A DNA stretch of 63,212 nt, filler included. It is 12 parts of 12 records of this genome, joined end to end, with 100 filler letters (N's around TTAATTAATTAA, not from the genome) between each part and the next. Parts side by side here need not be neighbours in the genome. Positions count along the whole stretch, not along the records: positions 10,283 to 23,899 come from SRR9670534_1247; positions 24,000 to 33,109 come from SRR9670534_1251; 10 more parts are not named here. One strand, 5' to 3'. The notes beneath the pieces are model-generated. The model made no database searches, was not told the DNA's origin, and worked only from the letters and a program-made list of their open reading frames with translations. Below, one piece after another: positions 4,176-40,677 of the stretch (its first letter is position 1; each line of letters begins with the position of its first letter). The position numbers and the translations under genes are program-made.

Positions 4176-4275
4176 NNNNNNNNNNNNNNNNNNNNNNNNN
4201 NNNNNNNNNNNNNNNNNNNTTAATTAATTAANNNNNNNNNNNNNNNNNNNNNNNNNNNNNNNNNNNNNNNNNNNN
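4176..4275. other. Artificial contig spacer (N-run, TTAATTAATTAA, N-run). Identical spacers at 10183-10282, 23900-23999, 33110-33209, 38162-38261, 40578-40677, 44927-45026, 51121-51220, 54509-54608, 58607-58706, 61039-61138
   Basis: Eleven identical 100-nt blocks carrying a six-frame stop linker; composition and gene content change across them. Confidence 0.99.
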
Positions 4276-10182: not shown

Positions 10183-10885
10183 NNNNNNNNNNNNNNNNNN
10201 NNNNNNNNNNNNNNNNNNNNNNNNNNTTAATTAATTAANNNNNNNNNNNNNNNNNNNNNNNNNNNNNNNNNNNNNNNNNNNNTAGGTAGGTAGTACCTAC
10301 TAGGTACTTATTTAATAAGTCTTATTATGTATTAATAATAAACGTGTAGTACGTTACTATGTACTATGTACTGGCTAATAAGTATGTAGAAAATTTGTAC
10401 TAGAAATGTAATTGGGGCTCTACCTAAGGATGCGATGAGTCATCACTGTGAGTTACTAATTAGTGTACCTTAATTGTTGTCTAATCATTAGACTCTAATG
10501 AAATCTGTTGTAACTGTTTCATTAGGTATGAAATCTGACTTGTTGAATTTGTTAGATATGTACTAATGAATTTGTTTTCAGCAATAAATTACATATATGT
10601 ATTGAACTTATTGTTATGAAATCATGATATTCTAGGAATGGAACAGTTTTTTGACGAAAAGTAAAATGATATGGTACAACTGAACATTTTGCCGTTACGA
10701 CCGAAATCACGCTTACAAAATATTTTCATGTTTTGAATTTTATGGTTTATGAAGTTGCCCTATGTTAGATAGAAATCTAAATGCTGACTTAATGAATAAA
10801 TGGTTACTGAATAACAAATAGTCTTTGTTGTTGTTGTTATTAATGCTACTAATTCAAGATTAATTAATACTGAAGTTTCAAGATA

Positions 10886-23851: not shown

Positions 23852-24949
23852 CATATACATTAAATACTAACACAGTGCAACAAAATTTTGGGACCCAAAN
23901 NNNNNNNNNNNNNNNNNNNNNNNNNNNNNNNNNNNNNNNNNNNTTAATTAATTAANNNNNNNNNNNNNNNNNNNNNNNNNNNNNNNNNNNNNNNNNNNNC
24001 CGATAATAAAGGTCGTACCTCAACAGGGTGACATCTTTTAGATGAAGTATACTTTTTTAGTTAGTTGAGTTAATGCAAAATGTTTTTTAAATCGTTAATG
24101 CAAAAGTTCTTGAATTATTCTAAAACTAACTGTTTGGCTTTAACTAGAGTTAATAGGGTTAATATTAACTTGGTTAAACAAAGGACTTTTAAAAATCCTT
24201 TAAAAAAGTCTTTTCTTGGCCTTTGTAACTTTATTCATAAGAATAAAATAAGAACTTTTGACTTTTCATTAAGCTCTAAGAGTAGAGAGAATACTACACT
24301 TTTTTCTGACATCTGTAAGAGATGTATTGTCAATCATGACTTTGACTGTATATGTATGTATAATAGCTTTGCACAGGCTAATACAGTTAACAACGTAGTT
24401 TTTATGTACCTGCCTGAGTATGTACAGACCAAGGTATATGTAGACCCTTCTAGGTGTGATTATGGAAATCGAGATCTTGTAAGTACATGTACTCTTCAAC
24501 TTCTCTTAATACATACATACTTGGTGAATGATACACTATTATGTACATACAGTGTATTTGGTAAATTATCTTTTGTGGTATGCTCTACACGTAAAGAACA
24601 GTTTTTATGTACTGTATGTAGTGGGTACATGTATTCAGTAGTACGTATTTGTGAACTAGATAGAGTACATATAGATTTTTGGCAATGTACGGTATGTATG
24701 TACTGCGCATTTTGCGACTTGTTCGGTAATTCATGTAAAATTGATAAAATATAGTCACTCGTTTGTATTAGGCTCTATGAGTTCGAACTACTCAAGGTAG
24801 TAATTAACAAAAGTTACCCCAACATGTATACGTGGGTAGTTATTTTGAATAAACCGTGTAACTGTAGAAATTTGGCACGTACTGTATATGTACGCAGTAA
24901 TGCACTTGTATTAGGTACGGTTCGTTTGGTCTGTGACATCTACTGGGTG

Positions 24950-26072
24950 ATGGAAGAGATTTGTAATGAAATATTGAAGAAACATCTACTCAAGAACAAC
25001 TACAATCTTGGTCAGTTAGCTGAAGTTGATTTGTCGAAAGTTCTAATGAATCTTCGTCATCGTTATTGTGATATGATTGATGCCAAATCCTCAGAAAATT
25101 GGGAATTGTATTCTGATCATAAATTGGAACTGACGTTAGAGCTACTTGGCTGGTTTGAGAACGTACATGGCTTTCGTTTCAAAGAGCATAAATTCTATAA
25201 TGAAGTGAAATTTTCGAGTGCAACAATTATCGGACAGCAGAAGGTTTCCGAAATGAGTGAAGACGAACTCCGTAAATTGATGGATTTTGTTAGACCAGAG
25301 TATCTAGAAATGACCGCCTTGGAGACTGAAGTTGACGCAGATAAATTGAAGATGAGATCGAAATTTCTGACGAAACTTAATCTTGGTTTCGATAAAATTG
25401 AAATCTATCGCAAAAACGCGTACAGAGAATTTTGCTCCAATGTAATCTCGGTGGTTGGTGCTTACTTACAGCTGAATACTGAAACGATTTCCGCTGATGA
25501 ATTGGTTACTTCAGATTCAGCGAACGAATTTCATGAGAAAATTACAGATTCGGCAATCAATGACAAACTTGGGATGACGTTACAAATTGCGTCTTGGTAC
25601 TTTTTGAAGTATGGATAGTATGCTCTTGAACAAGAGTTCACAAAGTATATCAAAGATATGTATGAGGAGATCCATGGTACTTCAATGTCAGAGAAAAAAG
25701 TTGGATACATAGTCAATAAGTACCGTACAGAGTACATCAAGATGTGTGCATCTGATCCTGCAGCAAAAGCAAGTGAAGAGTTTCTGAAGAATTTTGGTGA
25801 AATTTTTGGAGCTGTTGATGGACTAGAATGGTATGTCTTACCTAAAATATGTACGTTAATAGATGGCATTATGCTCCTACTTGATCGGAATCACGTGATG
25901 TTTAAAATCAAGTTTTTTCAAACTTGTTTTTTCAATTATGTATTTAAGAATGACAGGTACTTTAGACCGTCTTATTATATCTATTCGTCGCTAATAACAC
26001 TATTATTTCAGGTCGGAAGAAGAGATGTTGAATGTTTCCAAGACGGATATGACTGGAGGAATGTCGATTTAG
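24950..26072 (+). CDS. Predicted spliced cargo gene 1 (24950-25830, 26012-26072), two copies of an unknown helical repeat; internal TAG at 25616 in this copy
   Basis: Acceptor TGTATTAG before the ATG, donor GTATGT at 25831, acceptor TTATTTCAG at 26011; spliced end WSEEEMLNVSKTDMTGGMSI*. Confidence 0.55.
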
Positions 26073-26299
26073 CGGCTAAATTAGTGCACTTGCAACTACA
26101 ATTTGGTGGTGGTTATTGCTTATTAGGTAATTCGTTCTTTAAATCCTTAAACTGCAATAAAACTCTATTTTTTCAGGTCTTTTCGTTTGTTTTATTATAT
26201 ATTTCGTATTTATGGCAGTTTCCCTTTGATGTTTGGCTTTGCAACGACTTATTACTTAAGGTAATCTTCTCATTGAGTTATTATTGTACATTTAGAGAA

Positions 26300-27459
26300 A
26301 TGAACACGGGTAAAATTCTTGCTGCTGGCTTAGCCTTTCATAAAGCTAAGGAATGGTGTGCTAGAGTTTTAAGATGCTATAAACTGTACGACGATGCGCT
26401 AGCTGGTGCCAAAATGAAGAGAATTGATACTACACCTTTCATCGCCAAGTACACAGACGAATTGGACTTTATTGTAGATGCCAGAGAGGATGAAAAAGAT
26501 GAAACATTCTTCATTAACTGCGCAACCATCCAGATGAGCTTAATCACGTGGTTTGAGAGCACATATGGACCAAAATTGCGAGAAGAGAACTTCCAAATGC
26601 TGGTTTTAAAGTCCTTCAAGAGAAAAAGTGAAAACAACGAAGATCGAGTCTCTCAAATGCCTGACATGATTCTAGAAAAGATACGTCCTAAATTCCATCA
26701 ATGGAAATGTGATGATGTGGGTGATATAGAAAAATGGATTGACAACTTTGTTGAAGAATGTATGACCGAAAAGGATGATAATAATACGAGGTATAGATTG
26801 TTTTCGTATCATAGTGTTTGTATTACACTTTTTAGACCGTTCATGCAACTTTCATGGGAAGAGAAGGAAGAGAAATTAGGACGCTTCGTTATCACGACGC
26901 TTACTAAATACCTAACGCAAAATGGTCGTCAATTAGGAGCTATTGATAAAGATGATATGAAATTTATTGTGGCCAAATTGATGGGTCAATATGTCAAAGT
27001 GATTAGCAACAATCAACAAGTAGATGGTCGTTGGTCTGCTGGTTTGTACAATGAGCTCAAAATGGTGGTATATTGTTGGTACGAGACTACTGATGGTTTT
27101 TATGAATATGACCTGATCGTCAATGACTTCATTTTTAATGCGTACAGAAACATGGTAGGCCTAGCTTCTTCAATGGCACCGAAACCAGAGATGATTTCGA
27201 AAATTCGTGACTATTGTCGTCTCGAATTAAACAGGTGTGATCTGATGCTGAATAAACACATTCCCCTTCACCTTGAGAAGGAGAATCCCATGGTTATTCA
27301 ATTCAAAGCGAAAATGCGAGAATTTTTGATAAAAGAGGGTGTTATTATCATTGTAAAGCCTGGGTATGTACTGTATGTACGTAACCGTAAATTTATTTAT
27401 ATTGTTGCATTTTTAGAAAGTATTCGTTGGAAGTTTGCTGTCCCAACGGTGGATTGTGA
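26300..27459 (+). CDS. Predicted spliced cargo gene 2 (26300-26790, 26836-27363, 27417-27459), paralog of cargo gene 1
   Basis: Acceptor CATTTAG 4 nt before the ATG; 45-nt in-frame intron; 53-nt GTATGT..TTTTTAG intron gives GKYSLEVCCPNGGL*. Confidence 0.6.
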
Positions 27460-27811
27460 AGTCTATCCCGTGACAATTATTTCAAACTGGTTCATTTATC
27501 TTTATAATCTTTGTCAAAATTTTTGTGTTTTTTACTTTGATATTCAATTTTTGAATGCAATTGAGGCGTCTAAATTTTATTTAGTATGCCTAGCTTATAA
27601 CTATTCGTTATGCTTTTTTGTACTTCTTAGAGAACCATTTTTTTGGTTTCTCATTAAGAAGTTAAGCAAATTTTTTACAAATTTATTTGGTATTTTGATA
27701 ATTTTTCACAATAGGGGTCGCCAACTATTGTTGTTCCTTATCTGCTTCGAATTAAGTTTATTACGTACTACTTTGGTACAAATACAAATGTTTTTTGAAT
27801 TGAATTTTCAG

Positions 27812-29279
27812 TCGGCAGTAAAAAGAAAACGTGGTTCTTCAGAATCTAGCGATATGGTGGATAAGGACGAAGAACTGGAACTTGAAATAAGTACCGAAAT
27901 GGCCAAGAACAACCAAATGGATCAAACTTCTGGTGATGAAAAAGCTGGTGTGCAATTCGAGAAAGGTAAACCGATAAAAGTACACGACCTTCTATGTTTT
28001 TTCCAAGACAACATTGATTGGTTTAAATGTCTCATGCAAAGATCTGGAATAACAAGTATGTTGCGTACCATGAACATTCCGCGTCCTCTTCATGAATATG
28101 ACGTATCTGACTTGAAAAGAATGTTCAAGACCAATACCATTTATGGTGATATTAGAATAAGGCTGGATAGCAACAAGACTGAACTTACCGAATCAGATAC
28201 TGCTGAATACTTCAAAACTGGTTTGACGAGTAAAGAAGATTTGGATAAGAAAGCAGATTGGCTTAAATCTTTCTTGCTCCCGTATGTTCCACCTAACAAC
28301 ACAGAAAACTGGATCGAGGTTAGAGCTAGAAAATGGGCAAGTGCAGAAGAAGCCTTTGGCTGCCAACCTTTTGAGATAATGTATGAAGATACGTCTGCTA
28401 AGCACCTTAAAGAAGAAGGTCTGAAAAAACAACCACCGGATGATGGACGGAAAAAATTTCGTACCGAAGTCATGCTTAACATGACTGTTCAATCAGAAGT
28501 GGAATTTGTCATTATTTTTGATGTATGGATGCAGTCAAAGAAGACTACTTCTTTTTTTGATGATAATCAAGCAGTTGCGCTAATTTGAGACGCGATTTCA
28601 TGGCTATCATTGGAAACGCTGTTTAATCACATGCACATTTCGAACAATGCCATCCATAGTGTCGTTATTGCAGCTCCAATTACTTTAAAATTGGGTATAA
28701 TTACTTTTATTGTGTTAATTAATTATAATACAATATTCATTAACATTATAGGAAGTGATCAGGATCGTAATTTGATTGAGAAGAAATTGACCCTAGCCAT
28801 TGACAACTTCCTTCGTCTACACCTGGTAAATCAGTTTATTCTGTATATTATCCCAGGTTGGGAAATTGCCAAAAATCCGATTGCTAATGATTTTGCCCAG
28901 GCCGTGTCACTCTGGAAAGACATCATCAAGAAATCTCAGTACAGCCAGAAAATTCGCTTAATTTCATTGGATAGCTCAAAGCTAGCTTTGATTGACAAAA
29001 AACCATGGGAGAAAATGATCTACTACGAAGATAGGATGGGGGGTTTTAGAGTTTTTGCCCAATGTCCAGATAATGGCAATGTGTTCAGAGAACTGAATGA
29101 TTTACTCTGGAAGACGATAGCCAATCTAGCGTATCTTACGGAAAATCATGATCAGCTGGATAAATTTTTGGGAGCCAAGATCGAAAGTAGGTATTTTTTA
29201 TTTAAATTTGTAAAAAAGACGAATTTTAATTCATCTATTTTTAGAAGCCTACAAGAGAAGACGCGGTCAAAAGTATTAA
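27812..29279 (+). CDS. Predicted spliced cargo gene 3 (introns 27966-28007, 28695-28751, 29187-29244); first internal ATG at 27854; internal TGA at 28586 in this copy
   Basis: Acceptor AATTTTCAG at 27811; 42- and 57-nt in-frame introns; 58-nt GTAGGT..TTTTTAG intron gives EKAYKRRRGQKY*. Confidence 0.6.
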
Positions 29280-29769
29280 CCTCCAACAATGCTTCTCCTC
29301 AACTAGAGCCTTTTATTTGCCATTTTCTCCATTATGTTTACTTTATTATATGTGTAACAGTTGAATTAAATTTTGAAAAATTCTTTATTAACAAATTTTT
29401 GAAAATTCTCTTTAACTTATTGTCTGTAGCGTTACCTTCTTTTAAGTTGTACTGTTCAATGTTTATTAATCAATTACTCTTACAGAATGTGTTGTTAGGC
29501 ATTATGATAGTATTAACGATTTTAATGTACATCAATTTATTGATATGTGTTTGTGTCGATGATAAATTTAACAATAAAGTACAACAGTGTGGTAAAAATG
29601 ACTCTAGCTCTTCTTTGATTAGAGTTAATCCAATTCAGCATGCACAACAAAATCCCAGTAACATATCCAATACTGGACAGCTGGTAACAAGAGGAAAAGG
29701 CCTTAAGATGAAATTTAATATGAGCCAACTGTTTGAAGTAAATGGAAAAAAGGTGCGTATTTTTAAAAT

Positions 29770-30365
29770 GTTTATGTACATCAATCTGCGTGGGTTACAA
29801 GGGAAACTAGCCACTTTCTTGAGGGATGCGTTGATTGATAATCAATGTATGAGTCTTACTGAGACCTGGTGGGATGATACACTACCCTTTTCTGACAACA
29901 GATTTTATGCCCATTTTACCAATAGGGGTGATTTTCATGGAGGAGCTGCACTCCTATCTCTTTCTCGCCTTGGAATTCAGAATGTATTGTACGAAACAAA
30001 AATATTTGAAATTCAAGCAAATACAATAGAACTTGATAAGTTTATTGTTACTACAATTTATAGTCGTCCTGAAACTAGTATAGTGTTAATTTACAACGCT
30101 ATTTCATCGCACCTCTTGGCGACAGAAGGGATTGATAAGGCCCATGTTTTTGTTGGTGATTTAAATTTATGTTATTACACTGACAAAAAAGCCGACATTT
30201 TGAAACTGATGTTTGAAACTAACAACTACGTAAATCATACAGCTAGGGTAACACGTATAAATGGGCATAGGGGTATTGACTGGCTTTTGATTAAAGAAAG
30301 TCCTGATTTTAAGGTAATGAACATTGAACTGGACCCTACTATTTATTCTGATCATTACACCTATA
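29770..30365 (+). CDS. Apurinic/apyrimidinic-like (APE) endonuclease domain of the element
   Basis: YINLRGL, LTETW, GGAAL, TIYSRP, VGDLN, TR...IDWLL, SDHY. Confidence 0.92.
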
Positions 30366-31096
30366 GCTTTAATTTTCAGGTAGTTGCTAAACCTCAAAAT
30401 ATTCAGAGCAAACGAATTTGGCTTTGGAACAATGTTAATTTCGATCTCTTTACAGATTGTTGGAGATGGTTGTATTTCCAAAGGATTAGAGATTTGGCTG
30501 AATCCAATGAATGTCCAGATTGGGACCTTTTTGAAGACAATCTTTCGGTAGATTTTAAAAATTGTTTAATTAAATCTTCATTGCATCAGGCAGCTAGCGA
30601 ACTTGTACCTACCAAGACTTGCACGAACAATGACAAATTTGCTAATATCTTCCAATTTAGTAAGGATCCCATAATTAAAGAGAATAAAACTCATCAAAAG
30701 CAGTTGAAAAGGGAACTGAAAATTGCCAATCAAGTGAATGACAGCAATGAGATTGAGAGAATCAAAAAGAATCTTAAGACTGCTGCTGCTGAACTTTGGG
30801 CATGGAAAAATTTGGTAAGATTTATTAAACTCAAAGAATTACGTAACACGAACAGGAAGTTCTTTTATAAAATTATAAATGATTTATCTTTTCAGACTAA
30901 AAAGAAAAAGAATGACATTTCATGCATCAAGGTAGATGGTGAAGTTATTCAAGACGCAGAGGAAATAGTGCACAACTTCAACAGATTTTTTTCTATGGCA
31001 GCTATAAAAACTTTAGCTAAGAATGGGTGGAGTCAAGAAATTATGGATGACAATTTTGGTAAAATTCCTTTCACTTGTGATGATGTTTGATTCTGT

Positions 31097-32791
31097 TTGC
31101 CTTCTGTATTGAAGAAATTACAATCACATAGAGCTGTGCCTGATATGGAATTTCCGCGTGAGGTATGGAAAGAGATAATTCTGACTAATGTCCAATTTTT
31201 TACACACTATTTTGATACAATTATTCGAACTTGCCAAGTACCGCAAGAATGGCATTCCTACGAAGTAAAACCCCTGTTTAAAAGAGGAGATCGCATGGAA
31301 TGTAACAATTATCATCCAATAGCGTTATTAAATCCTCTCTGTCTAATTTTCGAACAAATTGTACTAGATCACCTTATGAAAACTAATTGTTTAAACGTTG
31401 CAAACAATCAATACGCGTATAAGTGTGGGACAGGATGTAAAGATGCTCTTTGGAGTTTCTCCTCCATGATGGCCATTGCTAGGAAGAATAAAAAATTTTT
31501 CGGTGCTATTTCCTTTGATGCCTCTAAAGCATTTGATACTGTACAACCGAATACGCTGATGTCTATCTTAAGGGACAATGGTCTATCAAACCACATGACT
31601 GTTTTACTATTCAACTATTTAGCCATGAAAAGAATGCATATATTTATTGATGGAACAGCTTCTGACGAGGAAGATATAGTGGTGGTATGCCAACAAGGGG
31701 CCAAGCTTGGCCCCAAGTTATTTACTATTTATTTAAATAGTGTATGTCATTTAGGGCAAAATTGCTCCGTTTGTCTAGGACCCAAATTTGAAGCTTGTCA
31801 GTGTGTTCATTTAAATGATTACGCAGACGATATTGTCATCTTTGCTACAGGTGATAGTCCTGAAGAGTTGATTGGTAAATTAGAGAAGCTGGCTTTCAGA
31901 ATTATCTCTGAACTAGATAGTTTGAAAATTGTACTGAATATGTCAAATACTGAATTTTTTGTATGTCACCCCAAGGATGCTGTTCAAAGTGGTAAATTCA
32001 GGGTAAAGGTTAAGGATAATTTTATTAATAATTCTGAACAAATAAAAATTTTAGAAGCATTGTTTTCTTCGACGTCTAATGAGGAAGTGGTGTTAAATCA
32101 ACTGAAAAGACAACTTGGACCGTACTCCTTAATGGCATCATCCAACAAAATGTTCTTGTCACTCCATGAAATGAAGGTTATTTTTAACTCATATGCCTTA
32201 CCAATATTTGGTAATGGATCATTGATGTGGAACGCAGCGATTGTGAAAAAGATGGCCATTATTTTTAATTCAAAACTCAAAGAGATGATGTCTCTTTCTA
32301 CATTTGTCAGCTCGACTGCAAGTCGCTGTATCATGGATATTGACGCTTTAGGTAATTGGCTTAATAAGAATAACTCTAAGTGGATACTTAGGGGGGTAGT
32401 CAATGTGGTTGACTCCCCCATTATAAACAAACTTAGACTTATTTTATTAAATTGTAGAACTTGGCAAATTCCCCCCTTCTTTCCTGACCCCCAGCACCCC
32501 CTGGAACTATCCAGAGTGTTTCTTAACACTCATTTACAACGAACACCACCATTCAATGGCTGGCAAGAACTACTACAGTCCTCAGACCTCAAACTGAGAC
32601 AGCAAACGCTGACGAGTCTTTTGAATCAATTGGACAATGTTTGCAAGCAATCACGAAAGAATCAATGCGAACAATTTAAACAAATTACTGGCCTGAAATT
32701 AGACACAGTAAAATGGATCATAACGGAAATTCCACGAGCTGTACGTTACTTTCAATGGGACGTTAAAGTCTTACAGAAACGTAATTGTTAA
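31097..32791 (+). CDS. Non-LTR reverse transcriptase domain and C-terminal region
   Basis: PLFKRGD, NYHPIALL, NQYAY, DASKAFDTV, QGAKLGPKLF, YADD. Confidence 0.95.
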   Translation: MPSVLKKLQSHRAVPDMEFPREVWKEIILTNVQFFTHYFDTIIRTCQVPQEWHSYEVKPLFKRGDRMECNNYHPIALLNPLCLIFEQIVLDHLMKTNCLNVANNQYAYKCGTGCKDALWSFSSMMAIARKNKKFFGAISFDASKAFDTVQPNTLMSILRDNGLSNHMTVLLFNYLAMKRMHIFIDGTASDEEDIVVVCQQGAKLGPKLFTIYLNSVCHLGQNCSVCLGPKFEACQCVHLNDYADDIVIFATGDSPEELIGKLEKLAFRIISELDSLKIVLNMSNTEFFVCHPKDAVQSGKFRVKVKDNFINNSEQIKILEALFSSTSNEEVVLNQLKRQLGPYSLMASSNKMFLSLHEMKVIFNSYALPIFGNGSLMWNAAIVKKMAIIFNSKLKEMMSLSTFVSSTASRCIMDIDALGNWLNKNNSKWILRGVVNVVDSPIINKLRLILLNCRTWQIPPFFPDPQHPLELSRVFLNTHLQRTPPFNGWQELLQSSDLKLRQQTLTSLLNQLDNVCKQSRKNQCEQFKQITGLKLDTVKWIITEIPRAVRYFQWDVKVLQKRNC

Positions 32792-33055
32792 AATTTCAAC
32801 AATAGCTCTCAAGTTGGTTACAGAGTCTGGTCCAGAAAATGGAAACAATCTATTCAGGCTAATTAGTTAATTTGTCAATTGATTAGTTTATTATTCTACA
32901 TGAATTTTTTCCGACTTTATGTCGTGTTCATGATATACCTTTGTCACTGTCATACGCGTAAACTGTAGTAGTTATTTGTAGTTTCTGTTGTTTATTGTAA
33001 TTTTTATTATAATGCCATTTTTCTATTGTGTACGTATGATTACTGTTATGGTGAG

Positions 33056-33081
33056 AATAAAGGAATAGAATAGAATAGAAT
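33056..33081 (+). repeat. 3' terminus of the LINE: AATAAA followed by (GAATA)n tail
   Basis: AATAAAGGAATAGAATAGAATAGAAT; short tandem-repeat tails are typical of CR1/L2-group elements. Confidence 0.75.
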
Positions 33082-33209
33082 TTGAAATCTCTGATAACGA
33101 TTTAGTAAANNNNNNNNNNNNNNNNNNNNNNNNNNNNNNNNNNNNNNNNNNNNTTAATTAATTAANNNNNNNNNNNNNNNNNNNNNNNNNNNNNNNNNNN
33201 NNNNNNNNN

Positions 33210-36200
33210 GTCGGCAGGTAGACAGCAGAAAGCAACTCCCTGTTATCTCCCTGTTGTCATAATTGCAACATGACTTATTCTATCAAAAGCCTTTGCGTAG
33301 TCCATGTAGACAACAAAGACATATTTGTTGTCTCTATTGTCCACTCTATGCAAAAGGTCATGACAGAAGTCATATAATGCAATTGTGGTTGAAGATTCCT
33401 CTCTAAAAGTAATTGAGTAATTTTTCTGCAGGAATGGTCATTTCAATTTCGTGTAGGAAAACTTTCTCTACTATTTTACTAAGTATGGATAGAAGAGTAA
33501 TCGGTCTGTACTCTTCCACCTTACGTTAGAAGCCGTTTTTGGGTATGGGATGTATTATCCCAATCTTCCATATGGGGGGAAATTTGTTTGAACAGAGTAT
33601 GTTTTTGCACAAAGTTTGGATGGGTAGTGCAAGCTTGTATTTAAGTACTTTGAGCAGCCTACCCGATATATTATCTATACCTGGAGCACCATTCTTCTGC
33701 TTTGTTATGAAAGATATTATTCTTGCTTGATGTGTAAAAGGAGTGTGATCCTTTACATGTTCGTATTTGGAATATACCATTCTAACAAATTCTGGAGTAA
33801 TATCTTCCTCCTTGTAGACGTCATGGAATTGTGAACTTAACCCTTTCGCCTTTTGCTTGTCTGTGGTTAGATGTTCACCATTGTACAGCATAACAGGTGG
33901 TAACTTTGTGCTTTTCTGGCTGTTTAAAAACTTGTATATTGATCTCAAATCTTTGCCTGCCATCGATAGACGTTTATTAGCTTTATATAAATCATTTTGA
34001 AGGCTGGCCAATAAGCGCTCCTGCAATTGAACAACATTTGTTTTGTTATGTTTTAAACTGTTAGACAATTTTATTATTAAATTAGCCGATCCTGGTGATA
34101 CCCAATTTGAATATTCCCTCCTTTTTCTAGTCTTTGGTCTTTTCAAGTTTTTTAAACCAACCACCAATTCCTTTGAAAAATTTAGAACATCAAGTTTCAC
34201 ATCTTCAGAGTTGCATTCCAGAAAATTTACACTTTCAAACGCTTTCAGTATGTCAGCATCTTCAAAGTAATTCAAGTTGTATTCCCCTATTTTTCGAAAC
34301 AATTTTAAGTATTGCATATAATATGGTATACTACGTTTTAAAAACTCCTGCTGTTCAAGCCCAGCTTTTTCGTCAGCAGTCATATTTATCACTGGCTGAT
34401 TTACTTGAAAATTAGATTCATGCGTATATACTGGGTGATCAGACAGTAGTTTGTCCTCAGAAAGACTATAATAGAATTTCTCAGCTTCAACAGCATGTGT
34501 ACATTTTGTACTTGAAGTTTAAAAGTTTTGCATAATACACATTTTTTGCTCATCGAAATCTATTAATAGATTTTCAAAATCGCCAATGTCTAGGCATTCA
34601 TCTAACAATGCTTCTTCTTCTTCAACATTTATAATTCTCGTTTTCTTATTTTTTTCGTTTTACCTCAATGCATTTTGCATTGCTCCTATTTATATCCCCC
34701 ATTAAAATTAAATTGTTGTAGCTCTGCTGTTTTAAGGTGGTAAGTAAAATTCCTAAGTCTTTCTAAGGAAACCTATAATCGCTTCCATAAGGTGCATTAT
34801 AGGCTAAAATAATTATGTAATTTATACCTCCAATGTCCAGTTTGACCACTAGTATGTTTTGTCTAGCATTTTCGCTCAGAGATTTCGGTAGTTCAAGTGG
34901 TTCTGCTTTTAAATTTTCATCAACTAACAATGCCAAACCACCATGTTTAGATACCCCATTTTGCTGATAAGGTCGACCATTTGATATAATATTATAGTTC
35001 ATTATAGTCAGTTGGCTAAAATCTTCGTTGCTAAACCAAGTTTCTATCAGGGCATAAATGCTATGGCATGTGCTTAGGATTAGCATTTCCAAGGCTTGTC
35101 TTCGTGAGAGTAATAATAAGCTTCTGCAGTTGAGCAGCAATGTACATAACATTACCTTCTTTTTATTTACATTTACATTCATGGGTGAAATTTGGGTTTT
35201 TCTCTTATTTCTACATGTACAAGGAGAGTTTTTTGTGCTACCATATAGTCAGAAATGCCTGCCATGGCCAGCACCTCTGGAATTTCCATAACCTCTTTCA
35301 CGGTTCCAACCACCATCTCTATCGCGATTAAAGCCACCTCTGTAGAAACCTCTATTTCCACCTCTTCCTCTATATCCTCTGGAATAACCTCTGCTGCCAG
35401 CATTGAAGTCTCTGTTGAATCTTTGCCTAGGCTGCTCTCTGTCATCTCGGTATTGGTTTCTGTCATTGCGATTTCCATCACCATATCTCACATTTTCTTC
35501 ATCCCTTCCATATGCACCACCAGGCATTTGGTATTGTTCTCTCATATTATCAATGGTATTTTTCTGCACTGATCTTTGATGTCCATGTTTTAGATTCTGC
35601 ATTTCAGTTAATACAGATGGCGTTGGAGCTTTTTTGTTTCTATCCTTCTGCTCTCTGTAAGCGTTGACTAAATCTCTAAACATCAATTCAGTATCATCAT
35701 CAAATCTGGTAGACAAAGAAGAGCTACGGCTAGAAGCTTCATTGTTATGTTTTCCCTCATTCTTTCCAGGTTTACTAACTAGCACTTCATCATCCCACTG
35801 TTCCCAAGGCCTGCTAGTTTTGTCCTCTTTTGATAATCGCCTGTGATTATTGCCGTAATCTTTACTGTGCTCTTTTGAATCTCTATCTCGCTTGCTTTCT
35901 CTTTGCGTTCGATTATTATTATGATGGTCGCCATCTTTTCTGCTATATCTTCTTGGCGACGCACAATGCTTCTTACTAGATGTCTCCCTGTCTTTATGAT
36001 CCATACTCCTTCTTCTTTTTGATCCTTCAGCCGCAACTTTTATGTTTTTGATGTTCAGTTTCACTGTTTCTGTAGGTCTCTTTCATTGTTTTCTGGAAAT
36101 CTGCATGTTACAATCTTCAGTATCACTGCCAAGCTCGCTGATGGTCTCAAAAGAGGCATTAGGATCGTTGAATAAATCATTCAAACTGAGGTTTGTATCA

Positions 36201-37102
36201 CTTTTCTGCAACTCACTTTTGTCCACCTGTGAATGTGTCTCCTTCTTTTTTCCCCCTTCCAGCATTGTACTTTGCAACATTTGCTTCTCCATTTCTACTT
36301 CCTCCTTCTCCACCTGTTCTTTAATAAACTGAGAAGCAGTTGTTGTAGCCATTTGAGATCCATTTGATGATGAAAAGGATTGAGATTCTAATGCAAATGT
36401 GGTCATCCTGGCTTGTTTAGGTACTGCACCAGTAAACATATATGCAAACTGTTTGCCATTGCTTGTAAGTAGACTGTTTACTACTTTAGCTTCAGCTACA
36501 TTCACACTATCAGGGAGAGTTCCTTGCCTTCGTCCATGCTGAGCCATCATTCTTTTAATTGGTGGTACATATTTTTCGATGTAAACGCCAGATACATGAT
36601 TTAATTTGTCTGGAGTAAGCAATGTTTCCATTAGTAGTGGGTCCTTGATTTGAAAATGCACATGCCTGAATGCTTTTTGCTGGGCAGATGGTTTACCTTT
36701 TCTTCTTGCAAAATGCAGTTGTGATTGCCAATTCGTAATACCTGTAAATTTACGAAGATAGAAGCTGACTTTTGCTCTAAGTTTCTTCTTCGGTTCTTTG
36801 AAATCCACCTCTTCTAGAATTCCTCGCATGAAAAGTTCGTCAAGGTACACTCTATCTTCCATGTCAGCCATTGAACAAGTTTGGGCTCCTTGTATAGCAT
36901 TGAAATGTTGTTCATTTTCAGCTATCTTCATGGCAGTTGCTGTGATATTTTCACTATTTGCTTCAACCTGTGTGCGTAAGGCTTCTGTCTTCTCAAGAAT
37001 GGGCTATGTAATCGCCTTCATTTGGTCCAGGCTTTCCTTGACTCCATCTTGCATTAAACTTTCAATTTTATCCCAAGTAGCATCCGTAATATTTTCAGCC
37101 AT
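33210..37102 (-). mobile_element. Second, decayed non-LTR retrotransposon (ORF1 + APE + partial RT), truncated by the contig end
   Basis: APE: LNCRSL, LIETW, HGGLAL, LMGD, SDH. RT: APGIDNI, WKIGIIHPIPK, YRPITLL, DYAKAFDRI. Several stops and frameshifts between 34763 and 33210. Confidence 0.9.
35249..37102 (-). pseudogene. ORF1 of the second LINE: coiled coil, L1-ORF1/RRM-like domain, Ser-rich linker and RGG-rich tail; premature stops at 37006 (TAG) and 36085 (TGA)
   Basis: ATG 37102 (MAENITD) and ORFs 36083-36931 and 35249-36064 share one frame; MEDR..DELFMRGI.E and ARRKGK..RHVHFQI resemble the ORF1 RNA-binding domain. Confidence 0.7.
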
Positions 37103-37486
37103 ATGTACAATACCTTTATCTTCGTAGAAAGGTTTTGCAATAAAAATTGAAACACCTATAAAATACACTGCATTACTTTCAGTCGAAAGTTTTTCTTATC
37201 TGCTATATGCATATTCCTAGGCTTAAAAACTTAATTAAAATTTAAAATTCTAGCTTTTAAATAGGAATTTTCAGAGGGGTTTCCTTTCATATGGTTCATG
37301 GACTTTTGTTCGTAGATAGGCATTCATCCTCAAGATTATTCCAACTGTTTCATGTGGTTTAAGAAATCTTCCTAATATGTAATATCTCTGCACATCCAAA
37401 TACATATTGCGGAAGGAGTACAGAGTACAGAGCAACCGACATAGGAGCTGCTGTATACCATCAATATCTTGCGTAGCCAAAAACGA

Positions 37487-37573
37487 AAAACTGCTTGGGC
37501 AGTTAGGAAAAACTACTTATGTAGTTGAGCAAAAAACTGCTATAGCATGTGAAAAACTGCTTGCACAGTTGAG
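37487..37573. repeat. Four imperfect ~21-bp tandem repeats (AAAACTGCTT..GCAGTTGAG-like) upstream of the second LINE's ORF1
   Basis: Direct sequence. Confidence 0.6.
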
Positions 37574-38355
37574 ATGTACATACAGTAGTACTCTATATAC
37601 ATACTAGCATATACATTCAATACATATATCGTTTACTGCTAAGGTGTTAAGCGGTGAGTAGAAGTTTCTTCAATAAGATGTCTATACTAATATAACATTA
37701 TTGTATTGCATGTCAACTCTACCCAGGCAAGAACCATTTTAGTGGGATCACTTAGCATTACTAGAATACCTAACAGCAAGACTTATTACAATAATGTAAA
37801 ATACTTAAGACTCACATACCTAAAAACAGTTTCTCCCAGCCCAGTAAAAAAGGGCAGGGAGCTACCAATAGGCATAGTGAGTCATGGGCAAGTTTGACAT
37901 TTATGTACGTACCGTATCTACTATACATAACAGTAAAATAAGAAAATACACTATAATTTGAGATCAGAGCTTCGTATAACTAAAACATAGTATTATTTTA
38001 AATAGCATCGACCTAATTTTAAACATAGACTGTATCTTATCTGGAATGTACATAGCACCATAAGCACAAATAAATGTAACGAGTATTAGGTAAGCTGTCT
38101 GGGATAAACTATACATATTAAGAGCTACAAAGGGATACCCTCCCTAGGGGATCACTAGGGANNNNNNNNNNNNNNNNNNNNNNNNNNNNNNNNNNNNNNN
38201 NNNNNTTAATTAATTAANNNNNNNNNNNNNNNNNNNNNNNNNNNNNNNNNNNNNNNNNNNNATTTTTCAAAATTATTAAAATTTTAAATTTCTCAAAATT
38301 ATTAAAACTTTGAATTTTTCAAAATTATAACAAAATAGGGATAACAATAAAAAAA

Positions 38356-39529
38356 TCAATTTACATCATGGTTGACCATTGGATTAGTCAAGGCAAACTT
38401 TGGCTTCAAATTGGTCATTTCATTTGTCTTGCGGTTCAAGGCTTTATCCAAGGTGATTTCAAGGTGAGTTTCATCTCCAACGCAGGAACCTTCAACCGTA
38501 CCATCTTTGATAATATCCTTAAAGTCTGCCAAGACCTCTCTCTTCTCACTTGGATTCTCTTCATCGCTGGCATTTGCCAAGACCTCAACAAAGACAAATT
38601 CGTTCCAATCTCTTCTAAACTCATAAGCTGGTCTTCGAGACTGCCAGTTTTCACATTCCACAAAAAGCGTTACCCTTATATGGAAAAGGGGTGCATCGTT
38701 ATCCTAAAAGAAAAAAATTTAAACCTTTTTTAAATTTTAAACTAATTTAAAAAAAACAAATTAAAATTAAAATTTGTGAATTAAGTATGGATATGAAAAT
38801 AATTTAATAAATTTTATAAACTATTAAGAAAATAACAATAAAGTAAAATTAAAAAAGTAATTTAAATTTAAATTAAATTATTTAAAAAATTTAATTTAAA
38901 TTTAAAAGCAAATTAAATTTAGATTAAATTATTAAAAAATTTAATTTAAATTTAAAAAAAAGGAAATTAAATTTAAATAAAAATAATAAAATTTAAAAAA
39001 AGCAAATTAAATTTAAATTAAATTATTTAAATTAATGTTCTTTGAAATTATTTACACAAACCAAAGACATTCTTCTCAGATAGCTATGAGTAAAGATATC
39101 TCTCAAGCAAATAGTCAACGACTGACCGGTAATTCTACCCTCACTCTCGCAGTAACAAGGTTGAAAAGGACTTGGGTTGGGCGAGATCAAATCTTTCCAA
39201 ATGACACTAAATGGTCCACCATCTTTTGCCATATCCAACAATAATCTTTCATTGAAGCAAATTCTTGGTGATGGCACAGCCTGTCTTTGAAAGCCAGATC
39301 TTAGATCGATGGTGACTGTAGCATGCCCATCTTCACTTCTAGAAATGTTTACGCATCTATCAAATGCAGCTGGAACTTCTGATTCGTCGGTGTCATCAGA
39401 ATTGGATGTAGCCGCCAGCATGAAATACGAATGGGCCAGTGTCTCAGATTGTGTTCCGCTCAACTCATTCTTAGCATTATTGCTGACATTTTGCGCACGA
39501 ATGTCTTTGCTTTTATGAACTTCTGCCAT
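38356..39529 (-). CDS. Unknown ~270-aa protein, 2 exons (39529-39062, 38703-38356)
   Basis: Two coding-like blocks joined in frame by a GT-AG phase-0 intron (RRMSL|DNDAPLF); the intron is almost pure A/T. Confidence 0.65.
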
Positions 39530-39747: not shown

Positions 39748-39967
39748 AGCATATAACTGGCAGCAGTGCTGGCGGTATGATGGCGACATCTAACTGCTGG
39801 TGGTACCATAGCTGCATCTAACTCCTCGCAGTATGATAATGGTACCTAATTCCTGGTGGCATGATAGCCGCAGCTAACCACTTGTGGCATGATAGTGGCA
39901 TCTAACTGCTGGCAGTATGATAGCGGCATCTAACTGCTGGTGGTATGATAGCGGTAATAAAATGCTG
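39748..39967. repeat. ~27-bp minisatellite (GCATCTAACTGCTGGTGGTATGATAGCG-like)
   Basis: About 8 imperfect tandem units visible. Confidence 0.8.
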
Positions 39968-40677
39968 GTAGTAGATGTGGTTGCTATATATAGTATGTAC
40001 GTGCATCCCCTATAGCAATCGGCAACACCAAGCACCAATTTTACAGCTTTTTCCATTCAAGATCTGCACAAACATGCATGTAAAACAGTATTAAAAGCAG
40101 GAAATATATTTCCAGCAGCAAATTGCTATAAACTTTTTCATTGGTGATCTTAGGAATCTTTGGAATATGGAAGTTGCAAATGCATAGGCAATATTCAAAT
40201 GTCAACAAAATGAAAAGCAGTTATTTAACACAAACTGGTGTTCCATAACAAATTTCCATAGGTTGATATTACTTACATAATAAAGGGGTAGAGTTACTAC
40301 TAGTCACGATGTCAAAGTGACATTGTGTGAGTTAACTAGCCATATGCTTGAAAAAGTGGTAGCATGAGTAACTCATGATGAGTCTAGTGGTATAAGAAAT
40401 GAAAGTCATGCAATTATTACTCATCTCATAGGCCCTCAATTAAGATGCATTAGAATATATTATTAGTTACTACATAATAGGCATGCAGCTAAAGTACCTG
40501 AGGTTATCCATTTAGTATACTCTATAGAGTATATTTTACCTTTGAGAAAATGTACAGTGAGACACATAAGTTGTGTCNNNNNNNNNNNNNNNNNNNNNNN
40601 NNNNNNNNNNNNNNNNNNNNNTTAATTAATTAANNNNNNNNNNNNNNNNNNNNNNNNNNNNNNNNNNNNNNNNNNNN

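Follow-up and report, generated by a model that had tools for sequence, protein, structure and literature searches.

The 63,212-base stretch of DNA analysed here (the window) consists of 12 contigs joined end to end, one of which, of 9,110 bp (positions 24000–33109), is almost filled by a long interspersed nuclear element (LINE) whose reverse transcriptase (RT) forms the distal end of a single reading frame of about 2,900 codons. Some 2 kb of this frame has the character of noncoding, intron-like DNA and is nevertheless nearly free of stop codons, with one in about 670 codons where about 50 would be expected. We propose, tentatively and at somewhat under an even chance, that the RT is reached solely through a full-length unspliced RNA read in one frame, and that spliceable blocks within it, mostly not multiples of three nucleotides long, disqualify spliced RNAs. 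The sequence fact is solid and strange; it comes from one damaged copy, and for that reason the mechanism is one that we infer.

A single frame through noncoding-like DNA

The frame (plus strand, 24074–32791) has its first in-frame ATG at 24080, ends with a TAA at 32789 and runs over 8.7 kb without a frameshift. It is interrupted by four internal stops: TAG at 24752–24754 within the 5′ leader, TAG at 25616–25618 within a coding-like segment (S1), TGA at 28586–28588 within another such segment (S3), and TGA at 31088–31090 within the second open reading frame (ORF2), in the interval between endonuclease (EN) and RT and at a non-conserved alignment column. These leave contiguous stop-to-stop ORFs at 24074–24754, 24755–25618, 25619–28588, 28589–31090 and 31091–32791, and a read-through translation of 2,905 residues. 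Five ORFs in one frame, with one stop between each and no frameshift, had been reported in the first-pass annotation of this DNA, and the coordinates confirm it; the ORF starts listed there do share the frame, but two of them, 28610 and 31097, are not ATG codons. Over the same 8.7 kb, 214 and 334 stops fall in the other two plus-strand frames, and 164, 118 and 230 in those of the minus strand.

ORF2 (29558–32791, plus strand) encodes an APE-type endonuclease (about 29768–30370), a linker, an RT (Pfam RVT_1, about 31286–31981, E=5.1e-18) and a long C-terminal domain. We aligned 29735–32788 with six EN+RT proteins drawn from the homologue search. The RT motifs FxDxxxAFD (here FDASKAFDTV) and YADD align with those of the six proteins, the invariant endonuclease columns N17, E43, D142, N144, D182, D206 and H207 are kept N-terminal to the RT, and the C-terminal domain is likewise present in the alignment. 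No Pfam EEP model gave a match at E≤1 on 29558–30400, so the endonuclease is assigned by alignment. Homologues of the RT ORF numbered 108 proteins at E≤0.001 among 6,749 candidates, with a best identity of 29–31%. Behind the frame lie a 3′ untranslated region (UTR) of about 270 nt (32792–33062, plus strand) and, 270 nt past the stop, a (GAATA)3.8 microsatellite (33063–33081), a short tandem-repeat tail of the kind found in LINEs and the probable 3′ end of the element. RVT_1, the EN and RT residues, the C-terminal domain, the 3′ UTR and the tail together identify the element, as far as its sequence can, as an APE-type LINE with a full-length ORF2 and its catalytic residues kept, in agreement with its first classification as an EN-RT LINE. 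The flanks share only an 8-mer (24005 and 33056) as a candidate target-site duplication, for which chance is plausible in AT-rich DNA. No further copy was found by tblastn or blastn in the other 11 contigs of the window, and no related locus was confirmed among the pattern matches obtained from contigs of metagenomes (27), viruses (1) and genomes (6). A comparison of EN-RT with longer proteins (1,783–5,000 aa) scored none of 3,709 candidates, which is weak evidence.

The intron-like blocks delimited in the first-pass annotation were compared with 500 dinucleotide shuffles each. Block 24080–24914 contains one in-frame stop against 22.4 ± 4.6 expected, and blocks 25831–26295, 27364–27811 and 29187–29580 contain none against 10.1, 9.6 and 10.0, respectively; for each of these four, no shuffle out of 500 was as low. 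The short block 28640–28750 has no stop against 2.4 expected, a value reached by 41 of 500 shuffles and alone not significant. Two-state segmentation seeded with the same blocks assigned 671 codons to the noncoding-like state, with one stop against 49.5 expected, and an unseeded segmentation recovered five internal T-rich blocks. Host non-exonic stretches of the window, taken as a control, hold 1–40 stops per frame, about 3–16 per 100 codons in nearly all frames, the exception being one open 88-codon frame that is possibly an exon; the host intron behind the exon of a TPH-domain protein reaches a stop within 13 codons. The claim that the blocks are nearly stop-free where dozens of stops would be expected has therefore stood up to the shuffle count, and stop avoidance in this noncoding-like sequence is real and beyond chance.

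The T-rich blocks are flat across the three codon positions (T about 0.40/0.45/0.44, with G at the first position 0.15–0.19). Coding periodicity is seen in S1 (24947–25830), S2 (26296–27363), S3 (27812–28640 by composition), S4 (28751–29186 by composition) and ORF2, with G of 0.25–0.32 and T of 0.18–0.24 at the first position and high A at the second. Sense-codon usage in the blocks departs from that predicted by base composition no further in frame 0 (statistic G per codon 0.135) than in frames 1 and 2 (0.169 and 0.194), and the read-through translation contains only three transmembrane-like regions. Flat composition, frame-neutral codon usage and the small number of such regions together argue that the blocks are neither ordinary nor membrane-protein coding sequence, and the sole constraint visible on them is the absence of stops. 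Selection for uninterrupted translation is the one explanation found to fit such stop avoidance, which persists in the EN-RT frame for about 2 kb with no other constraint in sight; the core of the earlier proposal, that selection keeps the unspliced RNA translatable as far as the RT, survives on this evidence.

Phase-locked repeats as a source of the openness were ruled out by the flat composition and by the presence of short tandem repeats only, and self-BLASTP detected no internal repeats in the element. The last T-rich block contains a 25-nt tandem duplication (29368–29416, two copies, 84% matches), which suggests that the blocks grow by local duplication while being kept open. The leader between 24300 and 24910 is dense in GTAC, TGTA and GTATG motifs, with many TGTACA-like palindromes, yet open in frame; it may be an internal promoter or an array of binding sites.

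Upstream segments and splice-like borders

Upstream of ORF2 the element alternates between coding-like segments and blocks of intron-like composition, all given here on the plus strand. The 5′ leader (24080–24946) is GTA/TGTA-rich, has weak codon periodicity and is open but for the TAG at 24752. S1 (24947–25830, about 294 codons, ATG at 24950, broken by the TAG at 25616) is followed by the best intron candidate, the T-rich 25831–26011 (GTATGT...TATTTCAG, 181 nt, not a multiple of three, no stop in frame), and by a short coding-like stretch of 38 codons (26012–26126) in which frame 0 alone is open. The next T-rich block (26127–26295) comprises two small intron candidates (26127–26176, 50 nt, and 26261–26295, 35 nt) flanking an 84-nt T-rich open stretch. 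S2 (26296–27363, 356 codons) has its first ATG 4 nt past an acceptor-like AG and is separated from S3 by a T-rich block at 27364–27811 (GTATGT...AATTTTCAG, 448 nt, not a multiple of three). S3 itself (27812–28694 when bounded by splice-like motifs, ATG at 27854) contains the TGA at 28586; an AT-rich intron-like block (28695–28751, GTATAA...TTATAG, 57 nt, a multiple of three, no stop in frame) parts it from S4 (28752–29186 by the same bounds, 145 codons). The last T-rich block before ORF2 spans 29187–29557.

The coding-like segments had been described as cargo genes. No homologue was found for S1–S4, which leaves the label of host-captured genes unsupported: the protein of 25619–28585 gave no HMMER match in 1.84 billion representative proteins, the five upstream segments gave no Pfam family above threshold and only sub-threshold, chance-level rows at E≤1, and the Atlas neighbours of these segments had scores of 0.75 or none, with none usable. 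Pfam, over the five segments, and HMMER, for 25619–28585, detected no known ORF1 domain, nucleic-acid-binding or other, and the one CX2CX4HX4C match, at 24314, is isolated. A single-sequence AlphaFold2 model of 27812–28585 was unusable (predicted local distance difference test score 34.2). S1–S4 may equally be fast-evolving ORF1-type proteins of the element's own.

We next considered the borders of the blocks, which the first-pass annotation had described as bounded by GT..AG. This applies to 25831–26011, 26127–26176, 26261–26295, 27364–27811 and 28695–28751, but not clearly to 24080–24914 or 29187–29580. The intron character itself held in part, with good acceptor-like ends but weaker donors and lengths mostly not multiples of three. 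The 3′ ends read TATTTCAG (26011), TTTTTCAG (26176), ACATTTAG (26295), AATTTTCAG (27811) and ATTATAG (28751). TTHYAG lies within −3 to +15 nt of three of the five unseeded block ends (P about 0.0007 when compared with random positions, for a motif chosen post hoc), and a looser motif, a T-run followed by YAG, raises this to four of five. GTATGT falls exactly on the composition change-points at 25831 and 27364, and the single host donor seen in the window is also GTATGT. Each of the acceptors at 24915, 26295 and 27811 is followed by a first ATG in frame 0; behind the candidate exon starts at 28752 and 29486 the first ATG falls in frame 1, giving frame 0 in three of the five examined. A 14-residue insertion ahead of YADD in the RT was rejected as an in-frame intron, there being no suitable GT..AG.

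The candidate introns measure 181, 50, 35, 448 and 57 nt, only the last a multiple of three, although the outer span 25831–26295 (465 nt) is one also. In every segment between the blocks frame 0 alone is open, and since the lengths are mostly not multiples of three, splicing would end translation within 0–20 codons of the junction: removal of 25831–26011 is predicted to lead to a stop after 20 codons and removal of 27364–27811 to one after 3. Such early stops are odd for ordinary introns, and fit the expectation for spliced RNAs that must not reach ORF2. Trans-splice acceptors ahead of cistrons are another reading that would agree with acceptors being strong and donors weak. Splicing from 25831 to 26295 is predicted to place a TGA exactly on the junction, perhaps by chance.

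In the scheme that we favour, the contig would carry a single APE-type LINE copy, young and nearly intact, whose EN-RT protein is made only as the distal end of the frame of about 2,900 codons, translated from the first AUG of full-length RNA. LINE RT preferentially copies the RNA that encoded it, a cis preference established for L1 and assumed for this element. Given such a preference, copies in which a stop or frameshift lies at any point ahead of the RT would fail to propagate, and this filter would keep open even segments whose amino acids are unconstrained. The T-rich blocks would be splice substrates, whether as introns or as spacers with an acceptor site at their end. RNAs spliced at them, stopping within 0–20 codons of the junction, would yield no RT and would never be copied, which would allow a retroelement to keep its introns, and spliced forms may supply the S1, S2 and S3/S4 proteins, each with an ATG just past an acceptor. 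The fuller version of this scheme is possible, and we advance it with additional reserve: a non-LTR (long terminal repeat) retrotransposon that retains spliceosomal introns, in which EN-RT synthesis needs in-frame translation through them, unspliced RNA is the sole RT mRNA and template, and spliced RNAs give the upstream proteins. A LINE would then share out tasks among its RNAs in the way of a retrovirus, and the stop-free introns would be the trace of it.

Several points weigh against the scheme. It is drawn from one copy, whose four stops bar that copy from working as proposed, and two of them (25616 and 31088) lie inside coding-like or ORF2 sequence; cis preference is taken over from elsewhere for this clade. 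Donors are weak, GTRWGT occurring within ±3 nt of one of five unseeded block starts (P=0.055), and blocks 24080–24914 and 29187–29557 are without clear GT..AG borders. For the acceptors, the statistic was set up post hoc, and composition by itself gives T-rich blocks T-rich motifs. The upstream proteins are without homologue or confident fold, and codon periodicity is the one sign that they are real.

Those same donors and ill-defined borders would be expected if the blocks were never spliced and the element were a giant single-frame polyprotein LINE, its blocks being translated linker peptides free to drift T- and G-rich as long as they stay open, with incidental splice-like motifs. We regard this as unlikely, though well short of negligible. 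It would account for stop depletion without amino-acid constraint, for the positive GC skew and excess of T over A along the whole element, as befits a transcribed strand, and for candidate lengths that, being mostly not multiples of three, are awkward for ordinary introns of a frame-0 protein. It sits poorly with the exact GTATGT at two composition change-points, with the T-run and YAG at three (strict) to four of five block ends, and with the frame-0 ATG right past three acceptors. Nor did motif and Pfam searches find a 2A peptide or a protease by which a polyprotein might be processed; the motif D(V/I)ExNPGP is absent, with neither NPG nor PGP in the 2,905-residue read-through translation.

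The four in-frame stops

On the proposal that the RT is translated from unspliced RNA, the four stops are probably nonsense mutations acquired after an open copy had inserted. In this frame about 4.5–5% of substitutions would create a stop, and the four observed thus correspond to a divergence of roughly 1%. To gauge stops relative to frameshifts locally, we used a second LINE in the window, unrelated to the first (33210–38161, minus strand). It has an ORF1 with a coiled coil and an RG-rich part, a FDRISH motif close to the contig end, in-frame TGA codons at 36085 and 35251, a TAG at 34765 within the endonuclease, and two or more frameshifts on the way into the RT. This copy is decayed, with roughly one frameshift for every two nonsense codons. 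By its ratio, four stops without a frameshift have an estimated probability of about 0.1–0.15, which is not improbable and is unremarkable for a young dead copy, and we therefore read the stops as recent damage.

The stops might instead be functional, the element consisting of five consecutive in-frame ORFs in which low-level readthrough or restart throttles EN-RT in the manner of gag-pol. All four internal stops are the leakier TAG or TGA whereas the terminal one is TAA, and the five ORFs share a frame without a frameshift, which readthrough requires and reinitiation does not. Four non-TAA stops out of four have, however, a chance probability of 0.10–0.13 from codon content. A C directly behind a stop favours readthrough, and the bases found there are T, T, G and T. 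The 120 nt behind each stop fold like controls (z of 0.76, −0.98, −1.63 and −0.35 against −0.51, 0.43, −0.28 and 0.96), by which we rejected readthrough driven by structure. The TGA at 31088 would part EN from RT, which are one ORF in all six aligned relatives, and four leaky stops in series would yield almost no RT. We consider functional stops improbable.

More improbable still is that the architecture is not that of a mobile element, but of a single-copy host gene in which a LINE ORF2 has become fused or domesticated, or of an assembly chimera of host and LINE. Only one copy is seen, with no match in the other 11 contigs and no relatives in the collections searched, and intron-like interruptions upstream are as in host genes. 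Set against this, host non-exonic DNA is laden with stops where this sequence is stop-free in the EN-RT frame, and a chance in-frame junction cannot give one stop against about 50 expected. A LINE-typical 3′ UTR and microsatellite tail follow the ORF, and a domesticated gene would not contain four stops.

That the stops are decoded, with TGA as selenocysteine or with TAG and TGA as sense codons of a variant nuclear code, is very improbable and largely refuted: although the second LINE of the window also has in-frame TGA, and selenoprotein retroelements exist in the form of Naiad Penelope-like elements (PLEs; PMC8557442), Rfam gave no family at E≤1 on the element contig, the selenocysteine insertion sequence (SECIS) included and the 3′ UTR covered, the TGA at 31088 stands opposite H/Q/M/L/L/F in six relatives that are continuous there and so not opposite a conserved Cys, selenocysteine would leave TAG unexplained, and the second LINE is frameshifted as well and simply decayed. 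The variant code was rejected on the host ORFs, of which a few genes are covered (a 419-aa GT10 fucosyltransferase, a 541-aa P-type ATPase exon and the TPH exon), all without in-frame stops, and on the early stop in the host intron.

Known retroelements and the remaining contigs

The distal part of the element resembles APE-type LINEs, with an N-terminal APE endonuclease and RT in one ORF2, a C-terminal domain, a 3′ UTR and a short-repeat tail, and its best RT matches are EN+RT proteins from typical LINE contigs of 3–6 kb. The type of tail and the C-terminal motif tentatively suggest a CR1/Jockey-like group. Unlike LINEs of that group it has 5.7 kb rather than an ORF1 of 1–2 kb upstream of ORF2, all in one frame, including about 2 kb that is noncoding-like, and without a known ORF1 domain. 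On the usual view, LINEs lose introns because the RNA that they copy is processed, and ribosomes come to ORF2 by reinitiating past a compact ORF1. One long ORF translated from the 5′ end to the RT recalls single-ORF LINEs (R2, ingi/L1Tc) and LINEs with 2A peptides, the latter distinguished by the motif that is absent here. The ORFs of both are compact coding sequence, whereas a quarter of the frame described here is without coding character.

A retroelement that keeps spliceosomal introns, as we propose for this one, would be like PLEs and Terminons. In PLEs the RT is telomerase-like and the endonuclease, where there is one, is of the GIY-YIG kind, whereas this element has an N-terminal APE-type endonuclease and, by Pfam, no GIY-YIG, which places it outside both groups. 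We know of no description of in-frame stop-free introns in PLEs, and a full-text literature search, at the level of its listings, returned no LINE described with them. The Naiad report calls the retention of introns by PLEs through retrotransposition ‘highly unusual among retroelements’ (PMC8557442).

In function alone, the proposed use of unspliced RNA as both RT mRNA and template, with spliced RNAs giving other proteins, would be like that of retroviruses, and retroviral readthrough of an in-frame stop, one way to Pol, resembles only the proposed logic of the element. It differs from retroviruses in having no LTRs and no gag, pro or int, and its integration would be by target-primed reverse transcription. 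Exitrons, too, are intron-like sequences that continue the frame of the exons on either side without a stop and can be translated if retained. They are multiples of three in length and lie inside ordinary coding exons, whereas the candidates here are mostly not multiples of three, so that their splicing would terminate the frame instead of giving a shorter protein.

If the proposal holds, the stop-free blocks would be evidence, direct and at the level of sequence, that copies propagate or fail according to whether their whole RNA is translated in cis, and that a simple rule lets a retroelement carry introns and several extra proteins. Annotators would also be warned that stop-free ‘introns’ and very long ORFs in contigs of transposable elements are not necessarily artefacts. 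Should the blocks be mere linkers, the element would still be, to our knowledge and short of a systematic search, among the largest single-frame LINEs.

The 12 contigs of the window are joined by 11 identical linkers (44 N, a 12-nt all-frame stop spacer and 44 N), at 4176–4275, 10183–10282, 23900–23999, 33110–33209 and seven other positions; genes on either side of a linker are not genomic neighbours and the window is not one locus. The contig at 1–4175 (34% GC), with a PP-loop/TilS-like ATPase on the minus strand and RmuC on the plus strand, looks bacterial and may come from a symbiont or contaminant of the animal assembly. Animal genes on the remaining contigs include the GT10 fucosyltransferase, P-type ATPase exons, an AMP-binding enzyme and the TPH-domain protein. 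The identity of the fucosyltransferase to proteins from very diverse invertebrates is at most 38–41%, which marks the host as a poorly sampled animal. A tandem array of 28-nt units at 39769–39997 (six overlapping copies of an 89-nt register, 62–75% identity) adjoins very AT-rich, low-complexity DNA at 38719–39031.

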